In this document: piece by piece, positions 1,272-46,307 of the stretch
Position numbering within the stretch: position 1 is the first letter of the stretch
How the letters are laid out: the number at the start of each line of letters is the position of its first letter
Source: an uncultured Eubacteriales bacterium
GTDB lineage: Bacteria > Acidobacteriota > Aminicenantia > Aminicenantales > Aminicenantaceae
DNA length: 64,000 nucleotides
Assembly: GCA_964584935.1 (NCBI GenBank)
Contig: CAZPBN010000012.1
Coordinates: 17,094-81,093, forward strand
Direction of reading: 5' to 3'
Notes under the pieces: generated by a model
Told to the model about the DNA's origin: nothing
Databases searched by the model: none
What the model saw: the letters and a program-made list of their open reading frames with translations, nothing else
Translations under genes and position numbers: made by a program

Positions 1272-2753
1272 TTACGGGAAGATTCCTCTTTCTTTATAGA
1301 CCGTTTCAATGCGTGATATAGCTACCATCTGAGCCGCTGTTCGCATATCCACTTTTTTCTCTTTCGCCTTTTCACACACACGTTCATAGGCATTGACAAT
1401 GATCTTATGCAGTTTGTGATCCACTTCCTCAATATCCCAGAATTCACTGCGTTTATTCTGAAGCCACTCAAAGTAGCTAACAATCACTCCTCCGGCATTG
1501 CAGAGAATATCCGGAATAACATCTATTCCTCTGCTAACCAAAACTTTATCTCCATCCGGAGTGGTCGGGCCGTTGGCCCCTTCAGCAACGAGTTTAACCT
1601 TTAACAGTTTTGCAGTCTCTGATGTGATCTGATCTTCCAGAGCAGCCGGGATGAATATGTCCGCATCGGTGGTTAAGAAGGCCTCATGATCTATAGGACG
1701 TGCCTTAGGATAACCTTTTATAAGATTGTTGTTATTTTCCATATAATGAATCAAATCATCAGGATCAATGCCTTCCTTATTATAAATCGCTCCGGACACA
1801 TCTTCGACTGCCAAGAGATTTGATCCGTTTCTTTTCATCAATCGTGCTGACCAGGATCCAACATTCCCAAATCCTTGGATCATATAGGTCAATCCTTTCA
1901 TGTTGAATCCGCGATCCTTAACCCACTTCTCAATAAGAAAAACCAAACCTTGCCCTGTGGCTTTGTTGCGGCCTTGGGATCCACCCGCTTCGATGGGTTT
2001 CCCCGTGACCACGTGAATAGACCGATTACGTTCATTGGGAGCCACAGTTGACATATATGTGTCCATTATCCACGCCATGATCTGGGGGTTCGTATTCACA
2101 TCTGGAGCGGGAATATCATAGTCCGGACCGATATTATTTCCTAAAGAAAATGTGAACCGCCGGGTTATATTTTCTAATTCTCCATTACTGAAATCACTTG
2201 GATCAATTTGGATCCCTCCTTTGGCTCCTCCAAAAGGGATATTGGCAATGGCTGTCTTCCAAGTCATCAGAGTAGCCAGGGCTTTTATTTCGTCAACGTC
2301 AACAAGGGGATGAAATCGCAATCCGCCTTTGAATGGTCCCAGGATATTGTTATGCTGAACCCGATAGCCGGTTAACATTTTAACTGTCCCGTCATCCATT
2401 TTAACCGGAAAATGAACCACAAGTTCATTCATCGTTTCTGCCAAGATCCCACAAATATCTCTGTCAAAATGATTGTATTCCTTGATTTGTTCCAGTCGCT
2501 CGACAATATCTTTATACAAGTTTGATTTTTTTCTTTGTTTGGCTCTGTAATAGGGACATCGCCAAACGCCAGTTTCAGGTCTTGGTATATTACAAATCTC
2601 TTCTAGTTCACAAGAATTGCACAATCCTTTGAATTTTTTCCCTTCTTCAAAGCCTGGTCTCCCGTGTTGATAATACAACAGTTTCCATTCTTTGGTTGTT
2701 GACAAAGGCCTCAAACCATTGTTGTATTTACTCTCTCTTGTGTTATCTTTCAT
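1272..2753 (-). CDS. gdhA: Glutamate dehydrogenase (Glu/Leu/Phe/Val dehydrogenase family) with extra Cys4 N-terminal segment
   Basis: GPFKGGLRFHP, PFGGAKGG, GFGNVGS Rossmann motif. The longest ORF starts at GTG 2771, but ATG at 2753 is preceded by AAGGAG-N6, so the likely start is MKDNTRE. The N-terminal ~70 aa before the GDH core carries C-x2-C-x5-C-x11-C. Confidence 0.85.
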   Translation of the reverse strand: MKDNTRESKYNNGLRPLSTTKEWKLLYYQHGRPGFEEGKKFKGLCNSCELEEICNIPRPETGVWRCPYYRAKQRKKSNLYKDIVERLEQIKEYNHFDRDICGILAETMNELVVHFPVKMDDGTVKMLTGYRVQHNNILGPFKGGLRFHPLVDVDEIKALATLMTWKTAIANIPFGGAKGGIQIDPSDFSNGELENITRRFTFSLGNNIGPDYDIPAPDVNTNPQIMAWIMDTYMSTVAPNERNRSIHVVTGKPIEAGGSQGRNKATGQGLVFLIEKWVKDRGFNMKGLTYMIQGFGNVGSWSARLMKRNGSNLLAVEDVSGAIYNKEGIDPDDLIHYMENNNNLIKGYPKARPIDHEAFLTTDADIFIPAALEDQITSETAKLLKVKLVAEGANGPTTPDGDKVLVSRGIDVIPDILCNAGGVIVSYFEWLQNKRSEFWDIEEVDHKLHKIIVNAYERVCEKAKEKKVDMRTAAQMVAISRIETVYKERGIFP

Positions 2754-2782
2754 TTTTTTCTCCTTTCTCACATCTCCTTTAT

Positions 2783-2799
2783 TGCAATTTCAGTGCCAA
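2783..2799 (-). promoter_or_regulatory. Sigma54 (-24/-12) promoter for gdhA
   Basis: Minus strand reads TTGGCAC-TGAAA-TTGCA, a perfect match to TGGCAC-N5-TTGCA. It sits about 30 nt upstream of the gdhA ATG and directly downstream of a sigma54-dependent activator gene. Confidence 0.6.
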
Positions 2800-2984
2800 A
2801 TATAATATTTCATCCTTTTACTCCAATACCACTGGCGATATTATTTTTTGATTTCTTTAACTTGTTGAAAAAAAAAGAGTTATTTAACGCCCACAATGGA
2901 TAGAGCTGGGAATCCATTCACTCAGGTTTTTTTTGAATAATGAGAAAAGCGGGGAGATTTGTACCAGCGGGGAAAATTTCTCCG

Positions 2985-4352
2985 CTATGTGTGTTTCTTA
3001 TTCGAGTCTGGTATTTTTATTTTTTTTAACTTTTCACGAAGCGTTTTCCTGTCAACTCCTAGGATTTCAGCTGCTTTAGTCTTATTGTTATCCACGCTGG
3101 TTAAAACACTAAGAATATATTCAGCCTCCACTTCAGCCAAGCTTCTATGTCTTTTAATCCCACTGAGGGCCGAAAAACGCATAAGCGATGGAAGGTCAGG
3201 AACATCAATAATATTCCCTTCAGACATGACCACAAATCTTTGTACAATATTCTCCAACTCTCTAACATTTCCCGGCCAATAATAACTTTTCAAAACCTGC
3301 AAAGCACTTTCAGAAAACCGGGGGATTGACTTTCCAAACTCTTTGGCATACTTATCAGCAAAATGTTTGATCAACAACAAAATGTCTTCCTCTCTTTCTC
3401 TCAAAGGAGGAACCTCAATAGTGATCACATTCAGCCGGTAATAAAGATCCTCACGAAATGCTCCTTTATTCACATACCCCTGCAGGTCTTTGTTTGTTGC
3501 TGCAATGATCCTCACATCCACTTTCTGAGGGTACCTTTCTCCAACCATAATGACTTCCTTATCCTGGAGCACACGAAGGAGCTTGACTTGCATGGATAAA
3601 CTTGTCTCGCTTATTTCATCTAGAAAAATAGTCCCTCCATCTGCTGTCTGAAAAAACCCAGCCCTGGTTTCTGTAGCCCCTGTAAAAGCTCCTTTCACAT
3701 ACCCAAAAAGCTCACTTTCGAGTAAAGCCTCAGGGATCCCTCCGCAATTTATAGGGACAAAAGGAGACGAAGCGCGGGTGCTTTTGTAATGAATGGCTCT
3801 TGCCACCAGTTCTTTCCCAGTTCCACTCTCTCCAGTAATAAGAATCGTCGCTGAGCTTGAGCATGCTTTCTCGATAGCATTAAAAACCCTATGCATCGTT
3901 TTTGATTCTCCGATGAGCCCATAACGAGCGATAGGGACTTTATCGGTTTGCTTCTGAGTTGTTCTTCGCTCCTTGAGCTTACTGAGAACACGCTTCACAG
4001 AAGCAAAAAGTTCCTCATCAGTGAAGGGTTTCGCAAGATATTCTTCAGCTCCGGTTTTAACGGCTTCGACAGCTCCCTCAATGGAAGGATATCCTGTGAT
4101 CATGATAACTTCCGTATCTTTATAGTTTTCCTGAATATGCCGGACTAGGCTCAAACCATCTACCTTTGGCATTTTGAGATCCGTTATGACCAAATCCATT
4201 GGGGTGGATTCGAGAATCTTTATAGCCTCCACTGATCCCGGTGCAGTAAAGACATTATATCCTTTGGGCTCTAGATTTCTCCGCATCACCTCTAATATAT
4301 CCAGAGAATCATCCACAATAAGAATGCTTTCTTTTTTTGAAGGTTTTTTCAT
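2985..4352 (-). CDS. Sigma54-dependent response regulator (NtrC/AtoC family): REC + AAA+ sigma54-interaction + Fis-type HTH
   Basis: N-terminal receiver (ILIVDDS...VITDLKMP), Walker A GESGTGKE, GAFTGA sigma54-contact motif, ESELFGY, C-terminal HTH AAEILGVDRKTLREKL. Confidence 0.85.
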   Translation of the reverse strand: MKKPSKKESILIVDDSLDILEVMRRNLEPKGYNVFTAPGSVEAIKILESTPMDLVITDLKMPKVDGLSLVRHIQENYKDTEVIMITGYPSIEGAVEAVKTGAEEYLAKPFTDEELFASVKRVLSKLKERRTTQKQTDKVPIARYGLIGESKTMHRVFNAIEKACSSSATILITGESGTGKELVARAIHYKSTRASSPFVPINCGGIPEALLESELFGYVKGAFTGATETRAGFFQTADGGTIFLDEISETSLSMQVKLLRVLQDKEVIMVGERYPQKVDVRIIAATNKDLQGYVNKGAFREDLYYRLNVITIEVPPLREREEDILLLIKHFADKYAKEFGKSIPRFSESALQVLKSYYWPGNVRELENIVQRFVVMSEGNIIDVPDLPSLMRFSALSGIKRHRSLAEVEAEYILSVLTSVDNNKTKAAEILGVDRKTLREKLKKIKIPDSNKKHT

Positions 4353-4354
4353 CT

Positions 4355-6100
4355 TTACTTCTCGCTTTTTTCATTCGATTCAGGGATTGGAAGCCTTATC
4401 TCGAACCTTGTCCCCTGTCCCACCTTGCTTTTCACATCTATGGATCCTCCGTGGGAAGTAACAATTCCATGAACCACAGGCAACCCCAGCCCTGTTCCTT
4501 TTCCAATCTCCTTGGTTGTAAAAAAGGGAATAAATATCTTTTTGACAATGCCTTCCTCCATACCAACACCTGTGTCCTCCACTATAAATGAAATGGTTTT
4601 CCCTGATGATTCTGTTTTTATGGTTAATTCTCCACCATTGGGCATAGCCTGTATGGCATTGACAGCGATGTTGACAAAAACCTGTGTCATTTGAGCTGGG
4701 TCGGCAGTGATGTCTGGTATATTTTGAGAAAAGTTGCGAATAATCTTTATTCCTTCTTTGGCACATCGCGATTCAAGAAAATAAAGGCTCTCTTCAACAA
4801 TTTGACTTAAACTCACTTGAGCTTTTTGAGGAGGCATCTGACGTGCAAACAGCATCAATTTCTTAACCACTTCTCGTGCATGCAGAGAGGCTTTCATAAT
4901 TTTTTCAGTATCTTTTTTCACTTGATCGGATAAATCAGGATATTTCTGAACAAGCTGGGCAAATCCAAGAATGCTCCCTATAGGCTCATTCAATTCATGG
5001 GCTACTCCTGCAGATAATTGACCGATCGTAGCTAACCGGTCTGCATGCCTCAGCTGCTCTTGAAGTTTTTCTTTATCATGTTCTGTTTGCTTCCGTTCAA
5101 TAATCAAAGCCACCTCTTTAGCAACTGTATCAATTAAATTGCGCTCTTCTTTGAGAAAAGGGCCTTCGTCAAGCTCCGGTTTTTTTTCTGAATAAATCAC
5201 TTCAACGGTACCCCGCTCGCAATCACTAACAATAATACTCACCCTCTGTCTATGAACCCCATTTTGAAAATCATCAGTTAAGTAAGACTTTTGATCCACA
5301 GTAATTCTAGCTGAAGTGATCTCAGGATACAGCCAGGCTGGAGGAAGAAGCTGTGCAATTCCTTGAAGAATTTCTTCCAAGGAAAGGTCAGTCCGTTCCG
5401 CGAGCTTTGCAATACCATATAGACAGGTGAGTTCTTTAACCCTTTCGTTAAGCTCTACTTGAGCCCGCCGGTGAGCGGCAGCAATCCCTAAGGTCTGGAC
5501 AACATCCTCACAAAATAACACATCTTTTTTTTGGAAAGAATCAGGGGGCTTATTTTTTAATTGGAGCAATCCAATGTTTTCATTCTCCACGACAATCGGG
5601 ACCACAACTAAAGACCTGTAATTTTCAAACTTCATGGATTGGATCGAAGATACTCCCGAAATTTGTTTGGACAGAAAAGCAAGTGTTTTTTCAGTATGGT
5701 TTGTCCAAAAACTTCCATTGTCTGTTATAAAAGGCAAAGAAGAATCATATTGCTTAAGAAGAATATTCAAGCATAACTGATCCAGAGAAGAGTCTTTTTT
5801 CAATCCAGGTATATAGTGACCATTTCTATCTTTCACAACAGGAACAATTTCAAAGCGGAAAGACTGTTTTTTAGAACGCCTCATTTCACTTCGGTAATAC
5901 TTCCCCCGCTCCTTCAGCCACATCTCTACGGAATCACACCCACAAAATTCCAAGATAATTCTGGAAGTTTCTTTTAAAAAATCGATCCTCAGAAAGCCAT
6001 GAAAGGCAAGATGCATGATTTGATCTGAAACATTTCGGAAATCTTTAAGCTCATGGGGCGGGGCAAATTCTCTATTGGATTTCTTTGATGTCTTCGTCAT
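4355..6100 (-). CDS. Cytoplasmic sensor histidine kinase with N-terminal GAF-type sensor domains
   Basis: 581 aa, no TM segment, H-box HELNEPIGSILGFAQL, HATPase_c motifs (DTGVGM, GKGTGLGL). The stop is 3 nt from the regulator start, so the pair is probably an operon. Confidence 0.8.
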   Translation of the reverse strand: MTKTSKKSNREFAPPHELKDFRNVSDQIMHLAFHGFLRIDFLKETSRIILEFCGCDSVEMWLKERGKYYRSEMRRSKKQSFRFEIVPVVKDRNGHYIPGLKKDSSLDQLCLNILLKQYDSSLPFITDNGSFWTNHTEKTLAFLSKQISGVSSIQSMKFENYRSLVVVPIVVENENIGLLQLKNKPPDSFQKKDVLFCEDVVQTLGIAAAHRRAQVELNERVKELTCLYGIAKLAERTDLSLEEILQGIAQLLPPAWLYPEITSARITVDQKSYLTDDFQNGVHRQRVSIIVSDCERGTVEVIYSEKKPELDEGPFLKEERNLIDTVAKEVALIIERKQTEHDKEKLQEQLRHADRLATIGQLSAGVAHELNEPIGSILGFAQLVQKYPDLSDQVKKDTEKIMKASLHAREVVKKLMLFARQMPPQKAQVSLSQIVEESLYFLESRCAKEGIKIIRNFSQNIPDITADPAQMTQVFVNIAVNAIQAMPNGGELTIKTESSGKTISFIVEDTGVGMEEGIVKKIFIPFFTTKEIGKGTGLGLPVVHGIVTSHGGSIDVKSKVGQGTRFEIRLPIPESNEKSEK

Positions 6101-6419
6101 ATAATATTTTTATATTTTGTTTCCCTCAAATTAGCTTTTTTTCTCATTCATAACCCTCTCAACATTTCTATCTGTGATGCTATAAGAAAGCAGCTCTTCC
6201 GTCAAGACAAAATACAAAAGACAAAGAACGCAAAAAAGAACGTCAGGGAAACCGTCTTCTTGGTGTATTTGATGACAGGATCTTTTTCATTGTTGTTCGA
6301 TTTAACCATAATAACAGACCTTCAAAACAATTCTCATGGTTTTTTCTTGTCTTTTTAGTTTTTCCTGTTAAAATATTTGTGCATTTGCACGCTATTGAAG
6401 AAATTTAAGGAGTAAAAAA

Positions 6420-7295
6420 ATGGGTGATTTTTTTAAAAAAATTCTTTGGGCAACAGATTTTTCAGATGAGGCTCAAGATTCCCTTTATTATGCGGATATT
6501 TTTGCAAAAACTTTTAAAGCCAAACTCTTTGCCCTTCATGTTGTGCCGGATTTTTCACCTGCTTTATACACAGCTCCCTCAATGAAAGAACAAATTGAAA
6601 AAAGAGTCAATTCTGTTAAAAAAGAAGCGACAAAAAAACTTGAAACATTGAAGAAGTCCAAAGGGATATCTTTTGATATTTTAACCAAAAAAGGAAATGC
6701 ATCAAAAAAAATAATAGAAGCAATCGAAGAAAATGACATAGATCTGGTGGTCATGGGAAAAAAAGGTATGTCTGCATTGGAAAAAATATTCATTGGAAGT
6801 GTGGCAAATCATGTTTTAAGGGCTGTCCCCTGTCCGATATTACTCACAAAAAAGAAAACCGGAAAACCAAAATTTAAGAAATTTCTTGTTCCTACCGATT
6901 TTACGGAACAGGAAGAAGTAGAAAGAAACTATGCTTGGAAACTGGCTAAGGAATTTGATGGGGATCTGACCTTTCTTCATGTTTTGGAGCTCCATGATTA
7001 CGAATTTTCTCCCCGAGTCCTTGACGAAATGTTTGACTCTCTAATGAAAAAACTCAAGCAGAGAAGGAAAAGCGAAAAAGAAGATATAAAGATTTCAGAA
7101 GAAATTACTCGTGCGATTAATGCTTCTCTTGGAATCGTCGATTATGCTGAAACTAACAAGTATGATTTAATCATAATATCCACTTATGTTCATAGTAGAC
7201 TGGAAAAATTCTTTCTAGGAAGCACGACGGAAAAAGTAATCTCGCATTCCAATATTCCTATATTTGCCATTCCTCCTGCCGCAGGTTCTGATTAA
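6420..7295 (+). CDS. Tandem universal stress protein (two UspA domains)
   Basis: 291 aa with two UspA-like halves (ILWATDFSD...LHVVP; FLVPTDFTEQ...LHVLE). Good SD AAGGAG 8 nt upstream. Confidence 0.7.
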   Translation: MGDFFKKILWATDFSDEAQDSLYYADIFAKTFKAKLFALHVVPDFSPALYTAPSMKEQIEKRVNSVKKEATKKLETLKKSKGISFDILTKKGNASKKIIEAIEENDIDLVVMGKKGMSALEKIFIGSVANHVLRAVPCPILLTKKKTGKPKFKKFLVPTDFTEQEEVERNYAWKLAKEFDGDLTFLHVLELHDYEFSPRVLDEMFDSLMKKLKQRRKSEKEDIKISEEITRAINASLGIVDYAETNKYDLIIISTYVHSRLEKFFLGSTTEKVISHSNIPIFAIPPAAGSD

Positions 7296-8398: not shown

Positions 8399-10623
8399 TG
8401 CAGAAAAATCTTGTAATTGTTGAATCACCAGCCAAAGCCAAAACCGTTAATCGTTATCTAGGCTCTGATTTTATAGTGAAAGCTTCTATTGGACACATCA
8501 GAGACCTGCCAAAAAACAAACTGGGCGTTGACATAGGAAATAATTTTAAACCGGAATATGAAATTCTTCCAGGAAAACAAAAAGTGGTCAAAGAATTAAA
8601 AGAAGCTGCAAAGAAATGTGACTCTGTTCTTCTTGCTGCCGATCCCGACAGAGAAGGAGAAGCAATCTGCTGGCATTTAAGCCATATCTTGAAAGATTCC
8701 AATAATAATATTCACAGAATTCTGTTTCATGAAATCACAAAAAATGCCCTTAAACAAGCTTTCCACAATCAGGGAGAGCTAGACAGAAATAAGTTTAATG
8801 CCCAACAAGCAAGAAGAATTCTTGACCGATTGGTCGGATACCTCATAAGCCCTTTATTATGGAAAAAAATAGGGAGAGGGCTCAGTGCAGGAAGAGTGCA
8901 GTCTATTGCTCTCCGGTTGATAAGCGAAAGAGAAAAAGAAATCAAAGACTTTGTTCCAGAAGAGTACTGGAATATCATTGCGGAACTCAAGGCCTCCAAT
9001 CCTCCTCCCTTTAAAGCAAAGTTAATCAAAATCGATAAGAAAAAAGCGAAAGTGAACAATAAAGAGAAAGCTGAACAAATTGTCTCTGAATTGAAAAAAG
9101 CTGTTTTTATTCTGGAAGACGTAAAAATTAAAGAGAAAAAGAAAAATCCAAATCCTCCTTATATAACCAGCACTCTTCAACAGGATAGTTTTCGCACCAT
9201 GCGCTTTTCTGTGAAAAAAACAATGCTCCTAGCCCAAAGGCTCTACGAAGGACTCGAAATAGGAGAAAGAGGCCAGGTGGGTTTGATCACATACATGAGA
9301 ACCGACTCAGTACGGACTTCAGACGATGCCATCAACTTATCCCGGAAATACATAAAAGAAAACTATTCAGAAAAATATCTGCCAGACAAGCCCCGTATAT
9401 ACAAGAACAAAAAAAAGAGCCAGGATGCCCATGAAGCCATTCGTCCGACCTCTCTGGATCTTTCTCCAGAAAAAATCAAGAGCTATCTTCAAAACGATGA
9501 ATACAGGCTTTATAAGCTTATTTGGAATCGGTTTATAGCATCTCAGATGAAACCAGCTCTCATTGAAGAGACAACCTTTGATATAAAAGCTTCCCAATAC
9601 CGACTTCAAACAAAAGGGGAGGTCATAAAATTCGACGGTTTTTTAGCCGCTTTCCCCAAACCGTCAACTGAGGATAATATATTACCAAAGGCACAACCTG
9701 GAGAAACATTATCTCTCCTTGATATTGAATCTGAGCAGAAATTCACCCAGCCGCCTCCTCGTTATAGTGAAGGAACGCTTGTTAAAGAATTGGAAGCCAA
9801 AGGAATTGGAAGACCCAGCACTTATGCTCCTATTATTTCGACTCTCCAGGATCGAGTTTATGTGGTTAAGGAAAAAGGAAAATTTATTCCAACTGAACTG
9901 GGGCTTTTTGTCACCGACTATTTAATAAACAATTTCCCTGATCTGATGAAATTTGAATTCACAGCCCGGTTGGAAGATGAATTGGATAAAATCAGTGAAG
10001 GAACAAAAGAATGGGTCGATTATATTGCCAGCTATCATAGTCTCCTTGAAAAAGATTTGAACCAAGCCACAAAAAAAGAAGGAGTCAAAGGGAAGGGAAT
10101 TCCTTTGGAAGAAGTCTGCCCTGTATGCGGACAGAAACTGGTGATAAAAAGCGGTCGATATGGCAAGTTTAAAGCCTGTTCCGGATATCCTGAATGCAAA
10201 TTTAAAAAAAGCATGGTTAAAAAGGAGGCAAAACCTCTGGATGAAACCTGTCCGAAATGTGGTTCTCAACTGGTTATAAGACATGGGAAATACGGGCAGT
10301 TCATTGCCTGCTCCAATTACCCTGAATGCAAGTATATAAAAAAGGAACAAACGGACACAGGAATCCCCTGTCCAAAAAATTGCGGAGGCACAATAATTCG
10401 GAAAAAAACCCGTAAGGGAAAAATATTTTACGGATGCAGCAATTATCCCTCCTGTGACTTTGCCAGCTGGGATGAGCCTATCGACCGAACCTGCCCTCTA
10501 TGCAATCAAAGACCCTTATTTAAAAAAAATCTCATCAATAAAGATTCTTATATATATTGTGCCAATAAAGATTGCGATTTTAAAGAGCCAGTGGACAAGG
10601 AAAAAATATGGAATAAAAAATGA
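8392..10623 (+). CDS. topA: DNA topoisomerase I with four C-terminal C4 zinc ribbons
   Basis: Toprim N-terminus LVIVESPAKAKTVNRYLG, catalytic region, 4x CxxC...CxxxxC zinc ribbons. Overlaps the dprA stop. Confidence 0.9.
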   Translation: MVMQKNLVIVESPAKAKTVNRYLGSDFIVKASIGHIRDLPKNKLGVDIGNNFKPEYEILPGKQKVVKELKEAAKKCDSVLLAADPDREGEAICWHLSHILKDSNNNIHRILFHEITKNALKQAFHNQGELDRNKFNAQQARRILDRLVGYLISPLLWKKIGRGLSAGRVQSIALRLISEREKEIKDFVPEEYWNIIAELKASNPPPFKAKLIKIDKKKAKVNNKEKAEQIVSELKKAVFILEDVKIKEKKKNPNPPYITSTLQQDSFRTMRFSVKKTMLLAQRLYEGLEIGERGQVGLITYMRTDSVRTSDDAINLSRKYIKENYSEKYLPDKPRIYKNKKKSQDAHEAIRPTSLDLSPEKIKSYLQNDEYRLYKLIWNRFIASQMKPALIEETTFDIKASQYRLQTKGEVIKFDGFLAAFPKPSTEDNILPKAQPGETLSLLDIESEQKFTQPPPRYSEGTLVKELEAKGIGRPSTYAPIISTLQDRVYVVKEKGKFIPTELGLFVTDYLINNFPDLMKFEFTARLEDELDKISEGTKEWVDYIASYHSLLEKDLNQATKKEGVKGKGIPLEEVCPVCGQKLVIKSGRYGKFKACSGYPECKFKKSMVKKEAKPLDETCPKCGSQLVIRHGKYGQFIACSNYPECKYIKKEQTDTGIPCPKNCGGTIIRKKTRKGKIFYGCSNYPSCDFASWDEPIDRTCPLCNQRPLFKKNLINKDSYIYCANKDCDFKEPVDKEKIWNKK

Positions 10624-11504
10624 AAAAGGAAATAGACATTTTCCTCTCCCATCTTAAATACGAAAAAAACTATTCCGACCACACCATATCCAACTATAAA
10701 AGAGATCTCACCCAGTTTCAAACATTCACAAAAGAAAAGAATTGTTCACTCAAGAAAGTGGATAATCGAGTCCTTCGTGGTTTTTTAGCTTATCTCAGTG
10801 AACAAGGAAATTACAAATCAACCATTGCAAGGAAACTGGCAGCAATCCGGTCTTTCTTCCAGTTTTGTATAAGTAAAAAATGGGCGGATGATAATCCAGC
10901 CAAAATAGTCGCTACCCCAAAACAAGAAAAAAATATTCCCTCTTTCCTTTCAGAAGAGGAAATGACAAATTTTTTGGACCTCCCCACATCAAACAAACCT
11001 TTGGATCTTAGAGACAATTCAATTCTTGAACTTCTCTATGCAACCGGAATTCGGGTGAGTGAACTTGTGGGCATCAATCTCGAAGATATCGATATGGAAC
11101 AAAGACTTATCCGGGTAAAGGGAAAAGGAAAAAAAGAAAGGATTCTCCCTTTCGGAAAGAAAGCCGAAGCCAAACTGGTTTCATACTTGCGTTCAAGACC
11201 GCTGTTAAGCAAAGGGAACATTCAAGAAAAAGCCCTGTTTTTAAACTACCGCGGTAATAGACTTTCTGGTCGCTCCATAGAAAGAATTGTCGATAAATAT
11301 ATCCGTTTTGCCGCATTGAGAAGGAAAATCAGTCCTCATTCACTGCGGCATTCATTTGCTTCTCATCTTCTAAGCAGAGGCGCTGATTTGAGATTCATCC
11401 AGGAACTATTAGGGCATGAAAGCTTGGCAACGACTCAAAAATACACCCATGTTGATTTAAAACAACTATTAAAAATCTATAAGAAAAGTCATCCGAGGTC
11501 ATAG
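10620..11504 (+). CDS. xerC: Tyrosine recombinase XerC (CodV-like)
   Basis: C-terminal catalytic motifs HSLRHSFASHLL and LLGHESLATTQKYTHV with Tyr. The smf-topA-xerC order matches the Bacillus smf-topA-...-codV arrangement. Confidence 0.8.
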   Translation: MKKEIDIFLSHLKYEKNYSDHTISNYKRDLTQFQTFTKEKNCSLKKVDNRVLRGFLAYLSEQGNYKSTIARKLAAIRSFFQFCISKKWADDNPAKIVATPKQEKNIPSFLSEEEMTNFLDLPTSNKPLDLRDNSILELLYATGIRVSELVGINLEDIDMEQRLIRVKGKGKKERILPFGKKAEAKLVSYLRSRPLLSKGNIQEKALFLNYRGNRLSGRSIERIVDKYIRFAALRRKISPHSLRHSFASHLLSRGADLRFIQELLGHESLATTQKYTHVDLKQLLKIYKKSHPRS

Positions 11505-11909
11505 TTCATACTACCGTAAGAAAGAAGACGTAAGATGTGAGATGTCATTGATAATAGTATATGAAGAATCGAAAAGAGAAAATAGAAATATGTCCTTGTC
11601 CGATTTGTTCGGGCAATCCAGCCTCTAGTTCTAAAACAGTCTATTATTGTAAACCCTCAGACGTGATGACGTCAGATGTTAATCCCTAGGGCTTTGAAAT
11701 CATTGAACAATAAAATTTAAACGATCCTGAAACTTAATTACTGTGACAAATAAAAAAGTAAACGTTTGTTGTCGGCCCATCCTTCTATTTGTCAACAACT
11801 GTTGACCCCCTTTCCATCAATGAATTTTCTAAGTTGCTGTTATCAAAGAAATTATATTATTTTCAGAATGGCATCAATATTGCAATTGGTATAAGAGAAA
11901 GGAGGTCTT

Positions 11910-12221
11910 ATGAACAATTTATTCACTAAAACACTTGCTTTAAGTCTCATTTTCTGTCTTTTGTTCTCTTCTATTATTGTCCTTCAGGTCTATTCATTTC
12001 CTGTCCCTAATGAAAAAAAGATAAATATCAATACGGCTTCTTTGACCGAACTTCAAAAGCTCCCCAGGATCGGAATCAAAATCGCCCAAAGAATTATCGA
12101 TTTCAGAAATAAGCACGGGAAATTCAAAAAGATTGAAGAAATTATGAAGGTCAAAGGTATCGGTGAGAAGACTTTTGAAAAACTGAAGGACAAGATTACG
12201 GTGGGCTCATCGAAAAAGTAA
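11910..12221 (+). CDS. comEA: ComEA-like helix-hairpin-helix DNA-binding protein (competence DNA receptor)
   Basis: 103 aa, N-terminal signal/anchor, INTASLTELQKLPRIGIKIAQRIIDFR...IGEKTFEKL HhH tandem. SD GAGAAAGGAGG upstream. Confidence 0.7.
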   Translation: MNNLFTKTLALSLIFCLLFSSIIVLQVYSFPVPNEKKININTASLTELQKLPRIGIKIAQRIIDFRNKHGKFKKIEEIMKVKGIGEKTFEKLKDKITVGSSKK

Positions 12222-12229
12222 AATTAAAT

Positions 12230-12253
12230 AAGGGGGAGTTTGAACTCCCCCTT
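12230..12253. terminator. Bidirectional rho-independent terminator between comEA and rdgB
   Basis: Perfect 9-bp GC-rich stem AAGGGGGAG / CTCCCCCTT with loop TTTGAA, T-rich flanks on both strands. The rdgB stop codon lies in the 3' arm. Confidence 0.6.
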
Positions 12254-12881
12254 ATCTTTCAATCCTTTCGTTTAAATATCCTGCTAAAAACTGTTCTAGT
12301 TGCTTTAATGCCATTCCGCGATGACTTACTCTGTTTTTTTCTTCACCTTTCATCTCACCAAATGTCTTTTTAAGGGGTTGATAATAAAAGATGGGATCAT
12401 ATCCAAATCCCGAATACCCTCTTTGTTCGGTTGTGATGAATCCTTCCACAGAGCCCTGGAATTCCTTAATAATTCTACTCTTTGTAGAGAGAACCATATA
12501 CGAAACAAATCGTGCTTTTCTTGATTCCATAGAAACATTTTTTAACAATCTCAAAACTTTTTTGATGTTCTCTCTATCTGTAGCTTTTGGACCCGCAAAT
12601 CTTGCTGAAAAAACTCCGGGAGCTCCATTCAAATAATCAATTTCCAGACCTGAATCTTCAGCTAAAGTGAGATCATCGCAAAATTTCCTGTAAAACAGGC
12701 ATTTTCCCCGTGCATTGTCTTCAAAAGTAGTCCCTTTTTCTGTGTGCTCAACTTTGTCATTTAAATCTAAAAGAGAAGATATTTCAAGGGGGAAATTATG
12801 CAAGTGTTTTTTTATTTCTTTGACTTTTCCTGAGTTCGTTGTCGATATCAGAAGTTTTCGTTTATTCAATATTGATCTCAA
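12252..12881 (-). CDS. rdgB: Non-canonical purine NTP pyrophosphatase (RdgB/Ham1, ITPase)
   Basis: LLISTTNSGKVKEIK N-terminus, FGYDPIF motif, about 200 aa. Confidence 0.8.
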   Translation of the reverse strand: MRSILNKRKLLISTTNSGKVKEIKKHLHNFPLEISSLLDLNDKVEHTEKGTTFEDNARGKCLFYRKFCDDLTLAEDSGLEIDYLNGAPGVFSARFAGPKATDRENIKKVLRLLKNVSMESRKARFVSYMVLSTKSRIIKEFQGSVEGFITTEQRGYSGFGYDPIFYYQPLKKTFGEMKGEEKNRVSHRGMALKQLEQFLAGYLNERIER

Positions 12882-13512
12882 GAATCCCCTGGAGGGCCAA
12901 CAGACTTTGGTGGAATTTTTGCGCAGTTTCTTCAGAAGAAGTAAATTTCAGATTCACAACGGTTGATTCTTTTTCTTTCTTGAGATTGAACTCACTGAAT
13001 GAAATATCTTCCAGGGTCGCCAGTTTTCTAATTTGAGGCAGAGTTTCTTTGGGGGTTCTTATTTTCAAGGAATATTTATAAGAAGCTTTTTTCAGAATCT
13101 GATTTTCAAACTTCCTAAATATAATCAATACAAGCATGATAATGCCTGTAAAGATAAGGGCTATGATATAATAACCAGATCCTATTAGGAGGCCCAATCC
13201 AGCAACAGTCCATAAAGTCGCCGCAGTGGTCAATCCAGCGATTATCATTCCCCGAGCCTGTATGATTGTCCCCCCTCCAATAAAACCGATTCCTGTGATT
13301 ATGCCAGCCGCAATTCTGGTTAAATCCCCGCTGTTCCCTTCTGCATTCTGAAGGATTAAGTTCGAGACAATCATCATCATTGTTGAGCCGACACAGATAA
13401 GAATATTCGTTCTAAATCCGGCAGGCTTATTGCTTGATTCCCTTTCCAATCCTATCAACCCTCCAAGAGCGACGGCAAGTAATAATTTTAATAATATTTC
13501 GAGGTAATTCAT
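12862..13512 (-). CDS. mgtC: MgtC/SapB family membrane protein
   Basis: LKLLLAVALGGLIGLERE signature, 4-5 TM helices plus a C-terminal soluble domain. Overlaps the rdgB start by 20 nt. Confidence 0.75.
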   Translation of the reverse strand: MNYLEILLKLLLAVALGGLIGLERESSNKPAGFRTNILICVGSTMMMIVSNLILQNAEGNSGDLTRIAAGIITGIGFIGGGTIIQARGMIIAGLTTAATLWTVAGLGLLIGSGYYIIALIFTGIIMLVLIIFRKFENQILKKASYKYSLKIRTPKETLPQIRKLATLEDISFSEFNLKKEKESTVVNLKFTSSEETAQKFHQSLLALQGILEINIE

Positions 13513-37670: not shown

Positions 37671-38993
37671 ATGAAATTAAAAACTTTTACCCACGGCATT
37701 CATCCTCCTGAACACAAGCAGAGAACAGAAGAAAAAAAAATAGTTCCCTTCACATCTCCAGAGAAGGTGGTCATTCCTCTGAACCAGCACTTCGGGAAAC
37801 CGGCTGAACCAATTGTCAATAAAGGGGATGAAGTCCTTCTCGGCCAGAGAATTGGAGAAAGCACAGCTTTTTGCTCAGCCCACATACACTCCAGCGTTTC
37901 AGGAAAAGTCTTATCAGTCGATACTTATTATCATCCTGTCTGCGATTCTTCCCTTGCTGTCACCATAAAAAACGACGGAGAAGATCGCTTATCTCCTGAA
38001 CGGAAAGGATACAAAGATCCCTTTTCTTTGCCCCCTGAAAAAATCCAAAACGCTATCAAGGAAGCTGGGATCGTAGGCCTGGGAGGAGCGGCTTTCCCCA
38101 CAGCTATCAAACTGGCTCCTCCAAAAGACAAGCCCGTTGATACCCTCATCATCAACGGTTGTGAATGCGAGCCCGTGCTCACTTCTGACTATAGACTGAT
38201 GCTGGAGCATCCAGACGATATCCTTAAAGGGGCAGAGCTCGCCCGAATAGCCTCTGGCGCCAAACGGATCATTGTCGGTATTGAAGACAACAAGAAAAAA
38301 GCCTATGACCATTTAAAGGAAAAAGCCAAAACAATTCCGGCAGAGATCGCTCTCCTCAAAACAAAATATCCCCAGGGAGCAGAAAAGAATTTAATCCATG
38401 CTCTTCTTAAAAAAGAAGTTCCACGCGGAGGGCTTCCTTTTGATGTTGGAGTGGTTGTCCAAAATGTGGGAACAGCCAAATCCATTTGGGATGCCCTGAG
38501 TGAGGGGAAACCTCTCTATGAAAGAGTAATAACTGTTTCTGGAAATGGGATAAACAATCCGAAAAATATTCTGATCCGGCTAGGAACTCCTTTTCAGGAT
38601 GCCATCGATTTCTGTGAAGGAATAACCGAAGATGCCAACATTATTGTCATGGGTGGCCCTATGATGGGAATTGCCCAATGGACTCTCGAAGCACCTGTCA
38701 TCAAAGGCACCTCTGGGATTTTGGTTTGGGAAGCTGAACCTTCCAAGCAAGAATATTCTTGTATAAAATGTGGCCGTTGTGTTGAACACTGTCCTATGAG
38801 ATTGTCTCCGACCCAGCTGGCAAAATATGCCCAATTTGACAAATTAGCAGAGGCAGAAGCCTGGGGTATTCTGGACTGTGTCGAGTGTGGATGCTGTCAG
38901 TATTCCTGTCCTTCAAAAATTCCTCTTGTCCACTGGATACGCCTGGGCAAAAACAAAGTCGCCTGTTTAAAAAGGAAGAATAACGCCCGATGA
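37671..38993 (+). CDS. rnfC: Rnf complex subunit C (NADH-binding, 2x[4Fe-4S])
   Basis: RnfC N-terminal barrel sandwich, GxGGAxFP-like GLGGAAFPT, two ferredoxin motifs CIKCGRCVEHCP and CVECGCCQYSCP. Confidence 0.9.
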   Translation: MKLKTFTHGIHPPEHKQRTEEKKIVPFTSPEKVVIPLNQHFGKPAEPIVNKGDEVLLGQRIGESTAFCSAHIHSSVSGKVLSVDTYYHPVCDSSLAVTIKNDGEDRLSPERKGYKDPFSLPPEKIQNAIKEAGIVGLGGAAFPTAIKLAPPKDKPVDTLIINGCECEPVLTSDYRLMLEHPDDILKGAELARIASGAKRIIVGIEDNKKKAYDHLKEKAKTIPAEIALLKTKYPQGAEKNLIHALLKKEVPRGGLPFDVGVVVQNVGTAKSIWDALSEGKPLYERVITVSGNGINNPKNILIRLGTPFQDAIDFCEGITEDANIIVMGGPMMGIAQWTLEAPVIKGTSGILVWEAEPSKQEYSCIKCGRCVEHCPMRLSPTQLAKYAQFDKLAEAEAWGILDCVECGCCQYSCPSKIPLVHWIRLGKNKVACLKRKNNAR

Positions 38994-43760: not shown

Positions 43761-44870
43761 TCAAATTTTCATCGGCATTAATACATATGAGTATTCCATG
43801 TCTTCTTCTGATTCAGGCCGCATCAGGACTGCATTATTCTCATCTTTTAATTCAAATCGGACCTTATCTGATTTCACTGTTGACAAAAAATCAAGTAAGT
43901 ATTGGGAGTTAAATCCTATTTCGATGTTTTTCCCTTTATAATCGATATCGATCTTATCTCTGGCTTCACCTATCTCTGGGTTCGAGGAAAACAGCCTGAT
44001 TTTATCCTTTTCTATAAAAAATTTGACTCCTTTTGACCTTTCCGTGGAAAGTAAAGAAACTCTTCGTATAGAACTGGCAAGCTCTTCTCTGGAGAGGACT
44101 AAAGTATTGGGATTGTCTTTGGGAATGACTGTTTCATAGTTAGGAAATTTTCCTTCTATAATACGAGAAACCAGTATTCTGTTGTCCGTTTTGAAAAACA
44201 AATTGTTTTCGTCCAAATCAAACTCTATATTATCTTCTTCAAATTTTTTCAACTCATTCAATGTTTTCTTGGAAATGATCACACTGATTTCATTCTCCAA
44301 TTTCAGTTTTTCTAACATTCTTGACGTATAAGCCAATCTATGACCATCCGTGCTTATGAGTTTAACGTTGTTGTCGCTGAGACTAAGTAGAGCACCATTT
44401 AAATAATACCTGTGTTCCTGAGTTATGGCATAAAACACACCATTGATCATTTCTTTCAATTTCTCCAAGGGAAAATTTATGTTTTTTTCAAATTTAGGTA
44501 TTGGCACTTGGGGATAATCTTCTTTAGGCAAACATAGAACCTTGAATTCAGATACTCCTGACTTGATTTCCATTACTAAATCGCTTCCTTCTGTGAACGT
44601 TATTTTTTTATCATCAGGAAGGGATTTGATTATTTCAAAAAGTTTCGTTCCTGAAATGGTGGTTGCACCTGGTTCTTCAACAGACGCATCTGAAATTGTT
44701 TTGAGTCCTACTTCAAGGTCTGTTCCAATCATATTGATATAATTTTCCGATGTTTCAATCAGTATATTTGCAAGAATGGGCATTGTATTTCTCTTTTCAA
44801 CGATTCCTTGAAGTAATGATAGTTCTGTAAAAATCTTTGTTTTATCCACTGTAAATTTCATTTTATTCAC
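43761..44870 (-). CDS. dnaN: DNA polymerase III beta sliding clamp
   Basis: 369 aa, MKFTVDKTKIFTELSLLQGIVEKRNTMPILANILIE N-terminus, GTG start. Confidence 0.9.
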   Translation of the reverse strand: MNKMKFTVDKTKIFTELSLLQGIVEKRNTMPILANILIETSENYINMIGTDLEVGLKTISDASVEEPGATTISGTKLFEIIKSLPDDKKITFTEGSDLVMEIKSGVSEFKVLCLPKEDYPQVPIPKFEKNINFPLEKLKEMINGVFYAITQEHRYYLNGALLSLSDNNVKLISTDGHRLAYTSRMLEKLKLENEISVIISKKTLNELKKFEEDNIEFDLDENNLFFKTDNRILVSRIIEGKFPNYETVIPKDNPNTLVLSREELASSIRRVSLLSTERSKGVKFFIEKDKIRLFSSNPEIGEARDKIDIDYKGKNIEIGFNSQYLLDFLSTVKSDKVRFELKDENNAVLMRPESEEDMEYSYVLMPMKI

Positions 44871-44978: not shown

Positions 44979-46307
44979 TTATATACTCTCTGTCAAGTTG
45001 TTTATTTCTCTGTTAAAATTTTGATTATCACTTCTTAATTTCTCTATTTTCCTTATGCTGTGAATTACAGTGGTGTGGTGTTTTCCGCCAAATTTTTTTC
45101 CAATTTCCGGTAATGATGTTTTTGTCAATTCCTTTGAAAGATACATTGCGACCTGACGGGGGAAAGCTATTTTTGGAGAGTTGTTTTTTGATTTAAGCTG
45201 AGACAGCTTTATTTTATATTTATGACAAACTAACTTTTGTATTTTTTCCACAGTCACAACGGTTGAAGAGGATGATAACAAACTGTTCAGAGCTTCTTTT
45301 GTGATATCCATATCGATTTCTTTTCCTTTTAAGGAGGAATAAGCAATCACCCGTCTTAGATATCCTTCCAATTCCCTTATATTAGAGTGAACTTTGTCTG
45401 CAATGAATAAGGCAATACTTTCTGGTAAAGAAACTCCTTCCATCTCTGCTTTTTTATTAAGAATGGCAATTCTGGTTTCGATATCAGGCGGTTTGAGATC
45501 GGCAATTAAACCCCATTCGAAGCGGGAGCGGAATCTGTCTTCAAGATTTCGAATTTCTTTGGGTGAGCAGTCACTCGATATCACGATTTGTTTTTGGTTG
45601 TCGTAAAGATGATTGAACGTATGGAAGAATTCTTCTTTTGTTCTTTCCCTGCCAGAAAGGTAATGAATATCATCCATTAAAAGGACATCAATGGTTCTGT
45701 ATTTTTGACGAAAATCAAGAATTTTTCCGTATTGAAGATGATTGATCAAATCATTCATAAATTTCTCTGTTGTTATGTATAAGATTTTCTTCGCCGTGGA
45801 ATTCTCAAAAACACAATGCCCTATGGCATTCATTAAGTGTGTCTTTCCAAGACCAGCTCCCCCATAGATGAATAGAGGGTTGTAAGATTTTGTTGTCTTT
45901 TTTGCGACAGCTAAAGCAGCCGCATGGGCAAACTGATTGCATGAGCCCACCACAAAATTATCGAATGTGTAGTTGGGATTGAGATTTGGATTTAAAAGAG
46001 TCCCGTGCTTCACTCTTCTTTCATAGGGAGCCCGGCGGATGAACGAAGACGGGGTTTCATTATATATATATTTTATATCATAAATTTTATTGAATACTTC
46101 ACTCGAGCATTTGTTTATGAGCGATGAATAATGAAAAGAAAGCCAGTCCTTGAAGTATGAATTGGGTACTTTGACATAGAGACTGTCGGCTTCATCTCCG
46201 ATGTAACTTGTGGGTTCAAACCAGGTTTCAAAGCTTTTCCAATCGATTTTTTTCTTGATTTCATTTAAGATTTTCTGCCAAAGATTAATCTTTTCTGTAG
46301 GTTCCAT
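44979..46307 (-). CDS. dnaA: Chromosomal replication initiator DnaA
   Basis: 442 aa, Walker A GGAGLGKTHLMNAIGH, DnaA domain IV HTH at the C-terminus. Confidence 0.95.
   Translation of the reverse strand: MEPTEKINLWQKILNEIKKKIDWKSFETWFEPTSYIGDEADSLYVKVPNSYFKDWLSFHYSSLINKCSSEVFNKIYDIKYIYNETPSSFIRRAPYERRVKHGTLLNPNLNPNYTFDNFVVGSCNQFAHAAALAVAKKTTKSYNPLFIYGGAGLGKTHLMNAIGHCVFENSTAKKILYITTEKFMNDLINHLQYGKILDFRQKYRTIDVLLMDDIHYLSGRERTKEEFFHTFNHLYDNQKQIVISSDCSPKEIRNLEDRFRSRFEWGLIADLKPPDIETRIAILNKKAEMEGVSLPESIALFIADKVHSNIRELEGYLRRVIAYSSLKGKEIDMDITKEALNSLLSSSSTVVTVEKIQKLVCHKYKIKLSQLKSKNNSPKIAFPRQVAMYLSKELTKTSLPEIGKKFGGKHHTTVIHSIRKIEKLRSDNQNFNREINNLTESI

Follow-up and report, generated by a model that had tools for sequence, protein, structure and literature searches.

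What controls glutamate dehydrogenase (GDH) in Aminicenantes? The question is raised by a 64,000-nucleotide stretch of contig CAZPBN010000012.1 (the window), in which a GDH gene lies just downstream of genes for a sensor histidine kinase and an NtrC-family response regulator, the latter a bacterial enhancer-binding protein (bEBP) of the type that activates sigma-54 RNA polymerase. A first-pass annotation of the window proposed a textbook sigma-54 promoter ahead of GDH and read the locus as a self-contained regulatory module driving that gene. Our analysis, based on the sequence and its comparison with related loci, agrees in the main: the locus very probably encodes a dedicated, self-contained switch for the GDH operon, made of a two-component pair, with the bEBP as its response regulator, and a sigma-54 promoter. 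The same cassette is found in more than 10 phyla, mostly uncultured and anaerobic. Its parts in the window, all on the minus strand, are the following.

4355–6100, minus: sensor histidine kinase, cytoplasmic, 581 amino acids (aa) (Pfam GAF, HisKA and HATPase_c)
5480–5983, minus: N-terminal GAF domain of the kinase (aa 40–207), accessory (Pfam 29.7 bits against a cut-off of 22.4)
5081–5458, minus: conserved unannotated domain of the kinase (aa ~215–340; alignment A4)
2985–4352, minus: NtrC-family response regulator and sigma-54 activator (bEBP), 455 aa (Pfam, GAFTGA)
2969–2983, minus: putative upstream activator site, unit A, GGAGAAATTTTCCCC (tandem motif conserved across loci)
2951–2965, minus: putative upstream activator site, unit B, GGTACAAATCTCCCC (tandem motif conserved across loci)
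2858–2870, minus: T-tract followed by TTTCAACAAGTTA, resembling an integration host factor (IHF) site, with one mismatch to WATCAA-N4-TTR
2783–2799, minus: sigma-54 promoter TTGGCAC-TGAAA-TTGCA (TTGGCACTGAAATTGCA; consensus match, conserved in orthologues)
2760–2765, minus: Shine-Dalgarno sequence AAGGAG, 6 nt before the ATG at 2753
1272–2753, minus: glutamate dehydrogenase, 493 aa (Pfam ELFV_dehydrog_N and ELFV_dehydrog)
2673–2690, minus: EWKLLY motif (GDH aa 22–27), which precedes the Cys module in single-module versions (alignment A3)
2544–2651, minus: 4-Cys module in the GDH N-terminus (aa 35–70), FEEGKKFKGLCNSCELEEICNIPRPETGVWRCPYYR (hhalign against small-protein profile A2)

The kinase stop codon is separated from the regulator ATG by 2 nt (4354–4353), where a 3-nt gap had been annotated, and the regulator and GDH genes are separated by 231 nt. 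The earlier description of an NtrC-family activator and a cytoplasmic kinase immediately upstream of GDH is borne out by their Pfam domains, their shared strand and the lack of a transmembrane segment: the kinase has no hydrophobic 19-mer above 1.31 (Kyte-Doolittle) and is thus cytoplasmic. The regulator comprises Response_reg (receiver; E-value 3.4e-29), Sigma54_activat (2e-71), AAA_lid_14 and a Fis-type HTH_8 domain (7.9e-13), with its acceptor Asp58 in a TDLKMP motif and the GAFTGA sigma-54 contact loop at residue 220; its closest solved structures are the Aquifex NtrC-family entries 4L4U and 1NY5. NtrC (TIGR01818) is its best NCBIfam match, and it falls under every equivalog cut-off (NtrC 430.8 against 558.6, AtoC 428.3 against 714, ZraR 400.5 against 760). 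We therefore regard it as a member of the bEBP family and not as an orthologue of any named regulator.

The promoter annotated at 2783–2799 deserves its description as textbook. The GG of the -24 element (2797–2796) and the GC of the -12 element (2785–2784) have the exact GG-N10-GC spacing, and the GC lies 31 nt upstream of the GDH ATG (2753–2751), close to the 30 nt or so estimated at first; by the usual sigma-54 geometry, transcription is predicted to start near 2772. The exact consensus TGGCAC-N5-TTGCW occurs only here in the 64 kb, counting both strands (shuffle mean 0.08), although 8 of 100 shuffled windows hold at least one match, and allowing one mismatch raises the count in the window to 2, where 1.46 are expected. 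Taken alone, the motif is thus only moderately unlikely, and the argument for it rests on its position and conservation. Comparative genomics, put forward in the first-pass annotation as a check on the promoter, came out in its favor. Across the six closest Aminicenantes loci (L001–L006), the -24/-12 element is kept 30–45 nt before the ATG while the flanking intergenic sequence has diverged (examples are TGGCACAAAATATGCA, TGGCACCAAAGTTGCA, TGGCATCAAAATTGCA, TGGCACCAATATTGCA and TGGCACTGATAATGCA). We also surveyed 103 loci that carry the cassette, scanning the coding strand from the regulator stop codon to the first Cys motif (see below) for sequences that agree with TGGCAC-N5-TTGCW at 9 or more of 11 positions and keep both GG and GC; mononucleotide shuffles and the opposite strand served as controls. 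Such a match was present in 85 of the 103 loci, compared with 2.3% of shuffles and 2/103 opposite strands; the median distance from the regulator stop to the element is 203 nt, and that from the -12 GC to the start codon is 46 nt.

Candidate sites for the activator lie just past the regulator stop codon. Two direct repeats had been noted there, at 2949–2984, as either enhancer sites or part of a terminator. The repeats exist, with coordinates adjusted to 2948–2960 (AGCGGGGAGATTT) and 2966–2979 (AGCGGGGAAAATTT) on the plus strand; on the coding strand they form a tandem site of the form GGKAAWTTYTCCCC-N3-GGTTCAAATCTCCCC (full consensus GGgAAaTTcTCCCCggtGGTTCAAATcTCCCCg), with 18 nt from the TCCCC of unit A to that of unit B. 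This consensus was derived by inspection by eye together with a one-site-per-sequence expectation-maximisation search of 85 non-redundant intergenic regions. Of these 85 loci, 71 have the motif; the median distance is 13 nt from the regulator stop to its start and ~186 nt from it to the promoter downstream, and eight columns are nearly fixed over the 71 sites (G0, G1, C10, C13, G17, C21, C30 and C31). In the 64-kb window the position weight matrix finds one strong match, scoring 30.8, against 7.9 for the best unrelated match (the palindromic site itself also scores 16.0 when read on the other strand). The scan detected no second copy elsewhere in the window that would point to a wider regulon, and without another comparable match the activator has no other local target.

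The tandem sites are repeated and dyad-like, lie within the 80–200 bp upstream of a -24/-12 promoter that is expected of an enhancer, and are kept together with the regulator gene. As judged from sequence, they behave as enhancer-type activator sites and not as a terminator. It seems improbable to us that they form the intrinsic terminator of the kinase–regulator operon, whether in place of an activator role or in addition to it. Their position would suit a terminator, as they begin 2–13 nt past the regulator stop; the window sequence GCGGAGAAAUUUUCCCCGC can fold (-10.1 kcal/mol), and UUUUCUCAUU comes after unit B. However, that fold is unexceptional (z = -1.77, with 10/200 shuffles folding at least as well), no minus-strand terminator is called at the repeats, and no T-run follows: across loci, the 10 nt after unit B are not T-rich (mode 3 T). 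What is conserved over the 71 sites is the sequence, GG...TCCCC twice, and not the pairing, the four outer positions of unit A forming at most 2 Watson-Crick pairs in 53/71 sites. Moreover, two units 17–18 bp apart and ~186 bp upstream of a sigma-54 promoter reproduce the classic NtrC-type enhancer layout. Of the two options first raised, we favor the enhancer because the repeats are conserved in sequence across phyla and show no hairpin or terminator behavior. A further candidate, an IHF site in the DNA that separates the activator sites from the promoter, was ruled out as a general feature of the cassette: WWTCAA-N4-TTR was found in this interval in only 4/71 loci against 1.6 expected, the IHF-like TTTCAAYANNTTA being seen in the window, L001, L002 and L004.

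How widely does this arrangement occur? A tblastn comparison of the window kinase and regulator with 80 GDH loci found both genes directly upstream of GDH, on the same strand, in ~40 loci, with regulators 58–80% identical to that of the window. These loci come from Aminicenantes, TA06, Gemmatimonadota, Stahlbacteria, WOR-3, Zixibacteria, Terriglobales, Spirochaetes, Cloacimonadota, Planctomycetota/Phycisphaerae, Coatesbacteria and Myxococcales. The GDH of the window carries a 4-Cys module at its N-terminus, and in most other phyla this module is a separate small open reading frame (ORF) between promoter and GDH, fused or separate by lineage. A metagenome scan with the Cys-module profile yielded 80 loci; 62 of them had upstream sequence, and in 59 an orthologue of the window regulator (64–75% identical) lies at most 900 nt upstream of the Cys protein. 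Two of the remaining three (L137 and L141) have it ~960 nt away, just beyond that cut-off. The three Cys-family members that were looked up individually each follow directly after a kinase and sigma-54 regulator pair, and their downstream genes differ.

These downstream genes form the cargo of the cassette. Among 69 classifiable loci, 48 carry NuoE/GltB-type cargo, 14 a small GDH, often in the form of two paralogues side by side, and 7 other genes; two distinct proteins of the last class were scanned (L099 and L131), and both are large NAD-dependent GDHs of ~1,010–1,022 aa (Bac_GDH_CD). The NuoE/GltB-type loci (L083–L087, L102, L107 and many of L088–L167) combine NuoE-like, NuoF/GltD-like, Fer2_4/Fer4_7 and Glu_synthase (GltB FMN domain) genes, and no glutaminase-domain gene was found beside the GltB-like cargo in the loci inspected. 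By its domains, this set may encode an NADH- or ferredoxin-linked, ammonia-dependent complex resembling glutamate synthase. As annotated, then, every cargo provides for the interconversion of glutamate and 2-oxoglutarate. As read from these loci, the cassette has an invariant core of kinase, regulator, tandem site and sigma-54 promoter, together with the 4-Cys protein, which is either the first gene or an N-terminal domain. The parts, their order and their conservation come directly from sequence and comparison; co-conserved and syntenic as they are, they bear out the annotation of a self-contained module. Some loci vary on this theme. Eight (L088, L089, L096, L106, L108, L120, L126 and L161) have two GDH paralogues in tandem after the Cys gene, ~60–69% and ~52–63% identical to the window GDH. 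In L004, which is part of the complete Aminicenantes chromosome CP070825.1, another pair of kinase and sigma-54 regulator genes, more distantly related, lies just downstream of GDH (10895–12980); its regulator is 45% identical to that of the window.

Taking phosphotransfer, site binding, looping and activation from the established NtrC/sigma-54 mechanism, we infer the following course of events. The kinase (6100–4355) would sense an intracellular cue and phosphorylate Asp58 of the adjacent regulator (4352–2985), which would bind the two tandem sites (2983–2951) just past its own stop codon and, through phosphorylation-dependent oligomerization on these sites, form an AAA+ ring. With ~155–185 bp of AT-rich DNA between sites and promoter looped out, ATP hydrolysis and the GAFTGA loop would open the sigma-54 RNA polymerase complex at the -24/-12 promoter (2799–2783). 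Transcription from near 2772 would then yield an mRNA for GDH fused to the 4-Cys module.

Several observations weigh against this interpretation. Eighteen of the 103 loci score below 9/11 for the promoter, nine of them reaching 8/11, mostly at the expected position. Because the cassette loci share ancestry and include near-duplicates, our counts are higher than the number of truly independent observations. The same sequences served both to train the site matrix and to be scored by it (median log-odds 26, compared with 3.1 for the 99th percentile of shuffles), although the conservation is obvious by eye nonetheless. A weak sigma-70-like sequence, TCAACA-17-AATAAT, matching at 9/12 positions, lies at 2868–2840 and might permit basal or alternative transcription of GDH. 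Finally, rpoN was not found among window ORFs of suitable size or in up to 10 kb of extra contig flank at each window end, and a regular-expression search for the RpoN box found no such ORF in the window or in all 169 fetched loci. These last points, along with the shuffled windows that hold an exact match somewhere, would fit a -24/-12 match that is fortuitous or vestigial, in which case GDH would be expressed by a sigma-70 promoter or through transcription continuing from the regulator gene, and the two-component pair would control other genes. We consider this very improbable: the motif keeps its position across many phyla while the surrounding sequence does not, the activator gene and its candidate site always adjoin it, and sigma-70-like matches in the region show no excess (15 against 12.7 expected from shuffles).

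If the sigma-54 switch operates as proposed, what does it sense? The kinase consists of GAF (aa 40–207), an unannotated domain (aa ~215–340), HisKA (His368 in the H-box HELNEP) and HATPase_c, and the first-pass annotation took it for a GAF-sensor kinase; the idea of 2-oxoglutarate as signal leaned on this GAF domain. The GAF domain is indeed detected by Pfam, but it is not what cassette kinases share. Among 70 complete cassette kinases, 69 are clearly long (46; ~580 aa, window-like) or short (23; ~380–430 aa), and the short ones align only from window residue ~210 onward and thus have no GAF region. With 23/69 classed kinases lacking it, the GAF domain is accessory and dispensable. The only sensor-like part common to all is the unannotated domain of ~130 aa, with the motif ERvKELtCLY ... 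PpAW ... G.veV.Y ... pFl.EE..L and 16 invariant columns, one of which is a Cys in KELtCLY (alignment A4). By eye its sequence has a GAF-like pattern, which neither Pfam nor PDB searches confirmed: Pfam GAF matched in 1/17 members only (E-value 0.14), with no credible Pfam relative, and a PDB profile search matched designed repeat proteins only, through a short low-complexity stretch. On the evidence of these alignments, the conserved input domain of cassette kinases is this domain rather than the Pfam GAF.

The second unusual component is the Cys module. The window gene, annotated at first as a small GDH, does encode an ELFV-class enzyme (ELFV_dehydrog_N, 1.6e-54; ELFV_dehydrog, 2.2e-74), but its 493 aa include an extension of ~75 aa before the usual GDH start. 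The hexameric-type ELFV core spans aa ~78–493, with GGAKGG at aa 175 supplying the catalytic Lys of GGxKGG. As Pfam domains start only at residue 110 and the best NCBIfam match, GdhA_Arch (461 bits against a cut-off of 750), aligns from aa 78, residues 1–77 form the extension. The closest relatives, ~490-aa proteins from metagenome-assembled genomes of Candidatus Aminicenantes, are 65–78% identical with 97–100% query coverage. Within the extension, Cys45, Cys48, Cys54 and Cys66 follow the pattern Cx2Cx5Cx11C, and hhalign matches residues 35–70 to the second module of the stand-alone profile A2 with 97.6% probability (E-value 3.8e-12). C45, C48, C54, G62, W64 and C66 are invariant in 109 fused GDHs; in the preceding EWKLLY motif, W23, K24, L26 and Y27 are invariant in A3, and TA06, Gemmatimonadota and Zixibacteria versions also have this motif.

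The stand-alone Cys protein usually has a duplicated module in ~100–130 aa and ends ...GGVWHCEEY, and eight Cys are invariant among the 23 such proteins aligned. The family comprises 1,259 clusters at 90% identity, none with a Pfam match; all named clusters are "hypothetical" except one labelled "acetyl-CoA carboxylase beta subunit". At 50% identity there are 2,011 representatives, 1,342 of them at E-values of at most 1e-10. Neither Pfam nor NCBIfam gave a meaningful match to the module, and a PDB profile search gave only a chance transferrin match (E-value 0.07). AlphaFold models had low confidence, both for the stand-alone protein P0135 (92-sequence alignment; predicted local distance difference test score, pLDDT, 58; predicted template modelling score 0.23) and for the full window GDH (109 sequences; pLDDT 69.6, about 28–58 over residues 1–77), and we therefore draw no conclusion about the fold. 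As a lead only, the spacing recalls the [4Fe-4S] ligands of FNR (Cx2Cx5C plus a distal Cys) and WhiB-like proteins. Each module shares with these the Cx2Cx5C followed by a fourth invariant Cys; it differs in that the fourth Cys is only 11–12 residues off, and it has no homology to Pfam, NCBIfam or PDB entries. By the same kind of analogy, a zinc site is equally possible. A connection to the regulatory pair is hinted at by the invariance of the module and its place as first product, and a physical one to the enzyme by its fusion to GDH. Tentatively, and with more doubt than confidence, we suggest from these sequence features that the circuit may have a third component in the 4-Cys protein, one that senses metal or redox state; the kinase domain likewise has an invariant Cys. 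Were the protein to bind an Fe-S cluster or Zn, it could signal back to the kinase or the activator, or gate the activity of the glutamate enzyme.

As for the cue itself, the cargo enzymes point to glutamate, 2-oxoglutarate or nitrogen status, which is our best guess, with redox or metal input through the Cys module possible. The direction of the response is a separate matter. Instead of an NtrBC-type circuit for nitrogen limitation and 2-oxoglutarate assimilation, the cassette could be a substrate-induced catabolic switch, in which glutamate or amino acids induce oxidative deamination for fermentation in the manner of RocR-rocG; this would change the signal and direction only and leave the mechanism the same. 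We hold this to be a serious possibility, if somewhat short of an even one. The cargo includes large Bac_GDH-type NAD-GDHs, which are generally catabolic. The GltB-like cargo, having no glutaminase-domain gene beside it in the inspected loci, need not be a classical assimilatory glutamine oxoglutarate aminotransferase. At L081, the cassette stands beside glutamate-fermentation genes: a four-module, 228-aa Cys protein (6001–6687) follows the kinase–regulator pair, then come a convergent GDH and genes for 2-hydroxyglutaryl-CoA dehydratase (HGD-D) and its BcrAD_BadFG activator, with LarA and lactate/malate dehydrogenase genes upstream, a context that suggests glutamate fermentation. Many sigma-54 activators of anaerobes also control amino-acid catabolism, as described for Bacillota (PMC12316311). 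Against a catabolic role, 48/69 loci carry Glu_synthase (GltB FMN) with NuoEF-like partners, which are glutamate-forming by annotation, and the window operon includes no transporter or additional catabolic genes.

How does the proposed sigma-54 switch compare with known systems? In Geobacter sulfurreducens, gdhA has an RpoN-dependent promoter that is bound by GnfM of the GnfL/GnfM two-component system (PMC2995071, PMC2725144), and GDH genes occur in sigma-54 regulons of Bacillota (PMC12316311), so sigma-54-dependent GDH is not new in kind. GnfL/GnfM resembles the cassette in its RpoN-dependent GDH promoter and in a two-component sigma-54 activator that binds repeated upstream sites. Unlike the window regulator, however, GnfM regulates nitrogen fixation globally and its gene lies at another place in the genome; the sensor of GnfL is a PAS domain, the GnfM footprint on gdhA (-77 to +7) overlaps the promoter and also represses, and no Cys-rich partner has been described. 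NtrB/NtrC-glnAp2 of Enterobacteria likewise pairs a histidine kinase with a receiver-AAA+-HTH_8 activator and has two tandem sites over 100 bp ahead of its -24/-12 promoter, with an ammonium/glutamate target gene. Apart from scoring below the NtrC equivalog cut-off, the window system differs in having a GAF and an unannotated sensor domain in place of the NtrB PAS and no PII gene nearby, and the cassette as a whole is dedicated to a single operon and always includes a 4-Cys protein. Its site consensus GGKAAWTTYTCCCC also differs from that of NtrC, TGCACC-N5-GGTGCA.

In Bacillus subtilis, the GDH gene rocG is sigma-54 (SigL)-dependent and has a dedicated enhancer-binding protein, RocR, which has no receiver domain and no partner kinase and senses through PAS; this GDH is catabolic and induced by arginine or ornithine. 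The cassette shares the sigma-54-dependent GDH and dedicated activator with RocR-rocG and adds a receiver domain, a kinase and the Cys module. Finally, in the sigma-54 systems ZraS/ZraR-zraP and PspF-pspA, the regulator is subject to feedback from the first product under its control. These systems resemble the cassette, by analogy only, in that an operon under a sigma-54 activator begins with a small protein, and a feedback role for the 4-Cys protein is possible on this basis. Whereas ZraP is periplasmic, the 4-Cys protein is cytoplasmic, Cys-rich and sometimes fused to an enzyme, and the two have no sequence relationship.

Two-component control through a sigma-54 bEBP is thus textbook, and what is new here is the 4-Cys family, the unannotated kinase sensor domain, the enhancer consensus and the breadth of the system. 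Our literature searches found nothing on Aminicenantes with sigma-54 or on a kinase–regulator–GDH cassette, and nothing specific on a Cys-rich GDH extension or on NuoEF-GltB regulation. To our knowledge, nitrogen and glutamate regulation is essentially uncharted in Aminicenantes, Zixibacteria, WOR-3, Stahlbacteria, TA06, Phycisphaerae and similar sediment lineages. The cassette offers a testable regulon there, with a defined promoter, an activator-binding consensus and a kinase–regulator pair, and it allows metagenomes to be read for co-regulated glutamate enzymes, including the unusual NuoEF/GltB-type complex. The genomic association of the unannotated Cys family and kinase sensor domain can also guide biochemistry. 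Should the sensing role of the 4-Cys protein prove true, it would, together with the kinase sensor domain, reveal an unrecognized and widespread glutamate/nitrogen-redox control system in uncultured anaerobic phyla, acting alongside or instead of NtrBC/PII.

Elsewhere in the window, a second sigma-54-like element, TGGCATCAATATTGCA (GG-N10-GC), is found on the plus strand at 11869–11884; it is a TGGCAT variant, as is the GDH promoter of L004. It lies 27 nt upstream of the ATG of a plus-strand gene (11911–12222) for a ComEA-like helix-hairpin-helix protein of ~103 aa, which is preceded by AGGAGG at 11900–11905 and followed by a GC-rich hairpin and T-run at ~12232–12260. This gene has no adjoining activator gene, its upstream neighbor being an XerC/D-type recombinase gene (10620–11504). 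On the minus strand, dnaN (43761–44870) adjoins dnaA (44979–46307), from which the window probably spans the chromosomal replication origin region. Lastly, an RnfC-like gene on the plus strand (37671–38993; RnfC_N, Complex1_51K, SLBB and 4Fe-4S domains) heads a same-strand run of ORFs reaching ~42569, probably an operon for an Rnf ferredoxin:NAD+ oxidoreductase.

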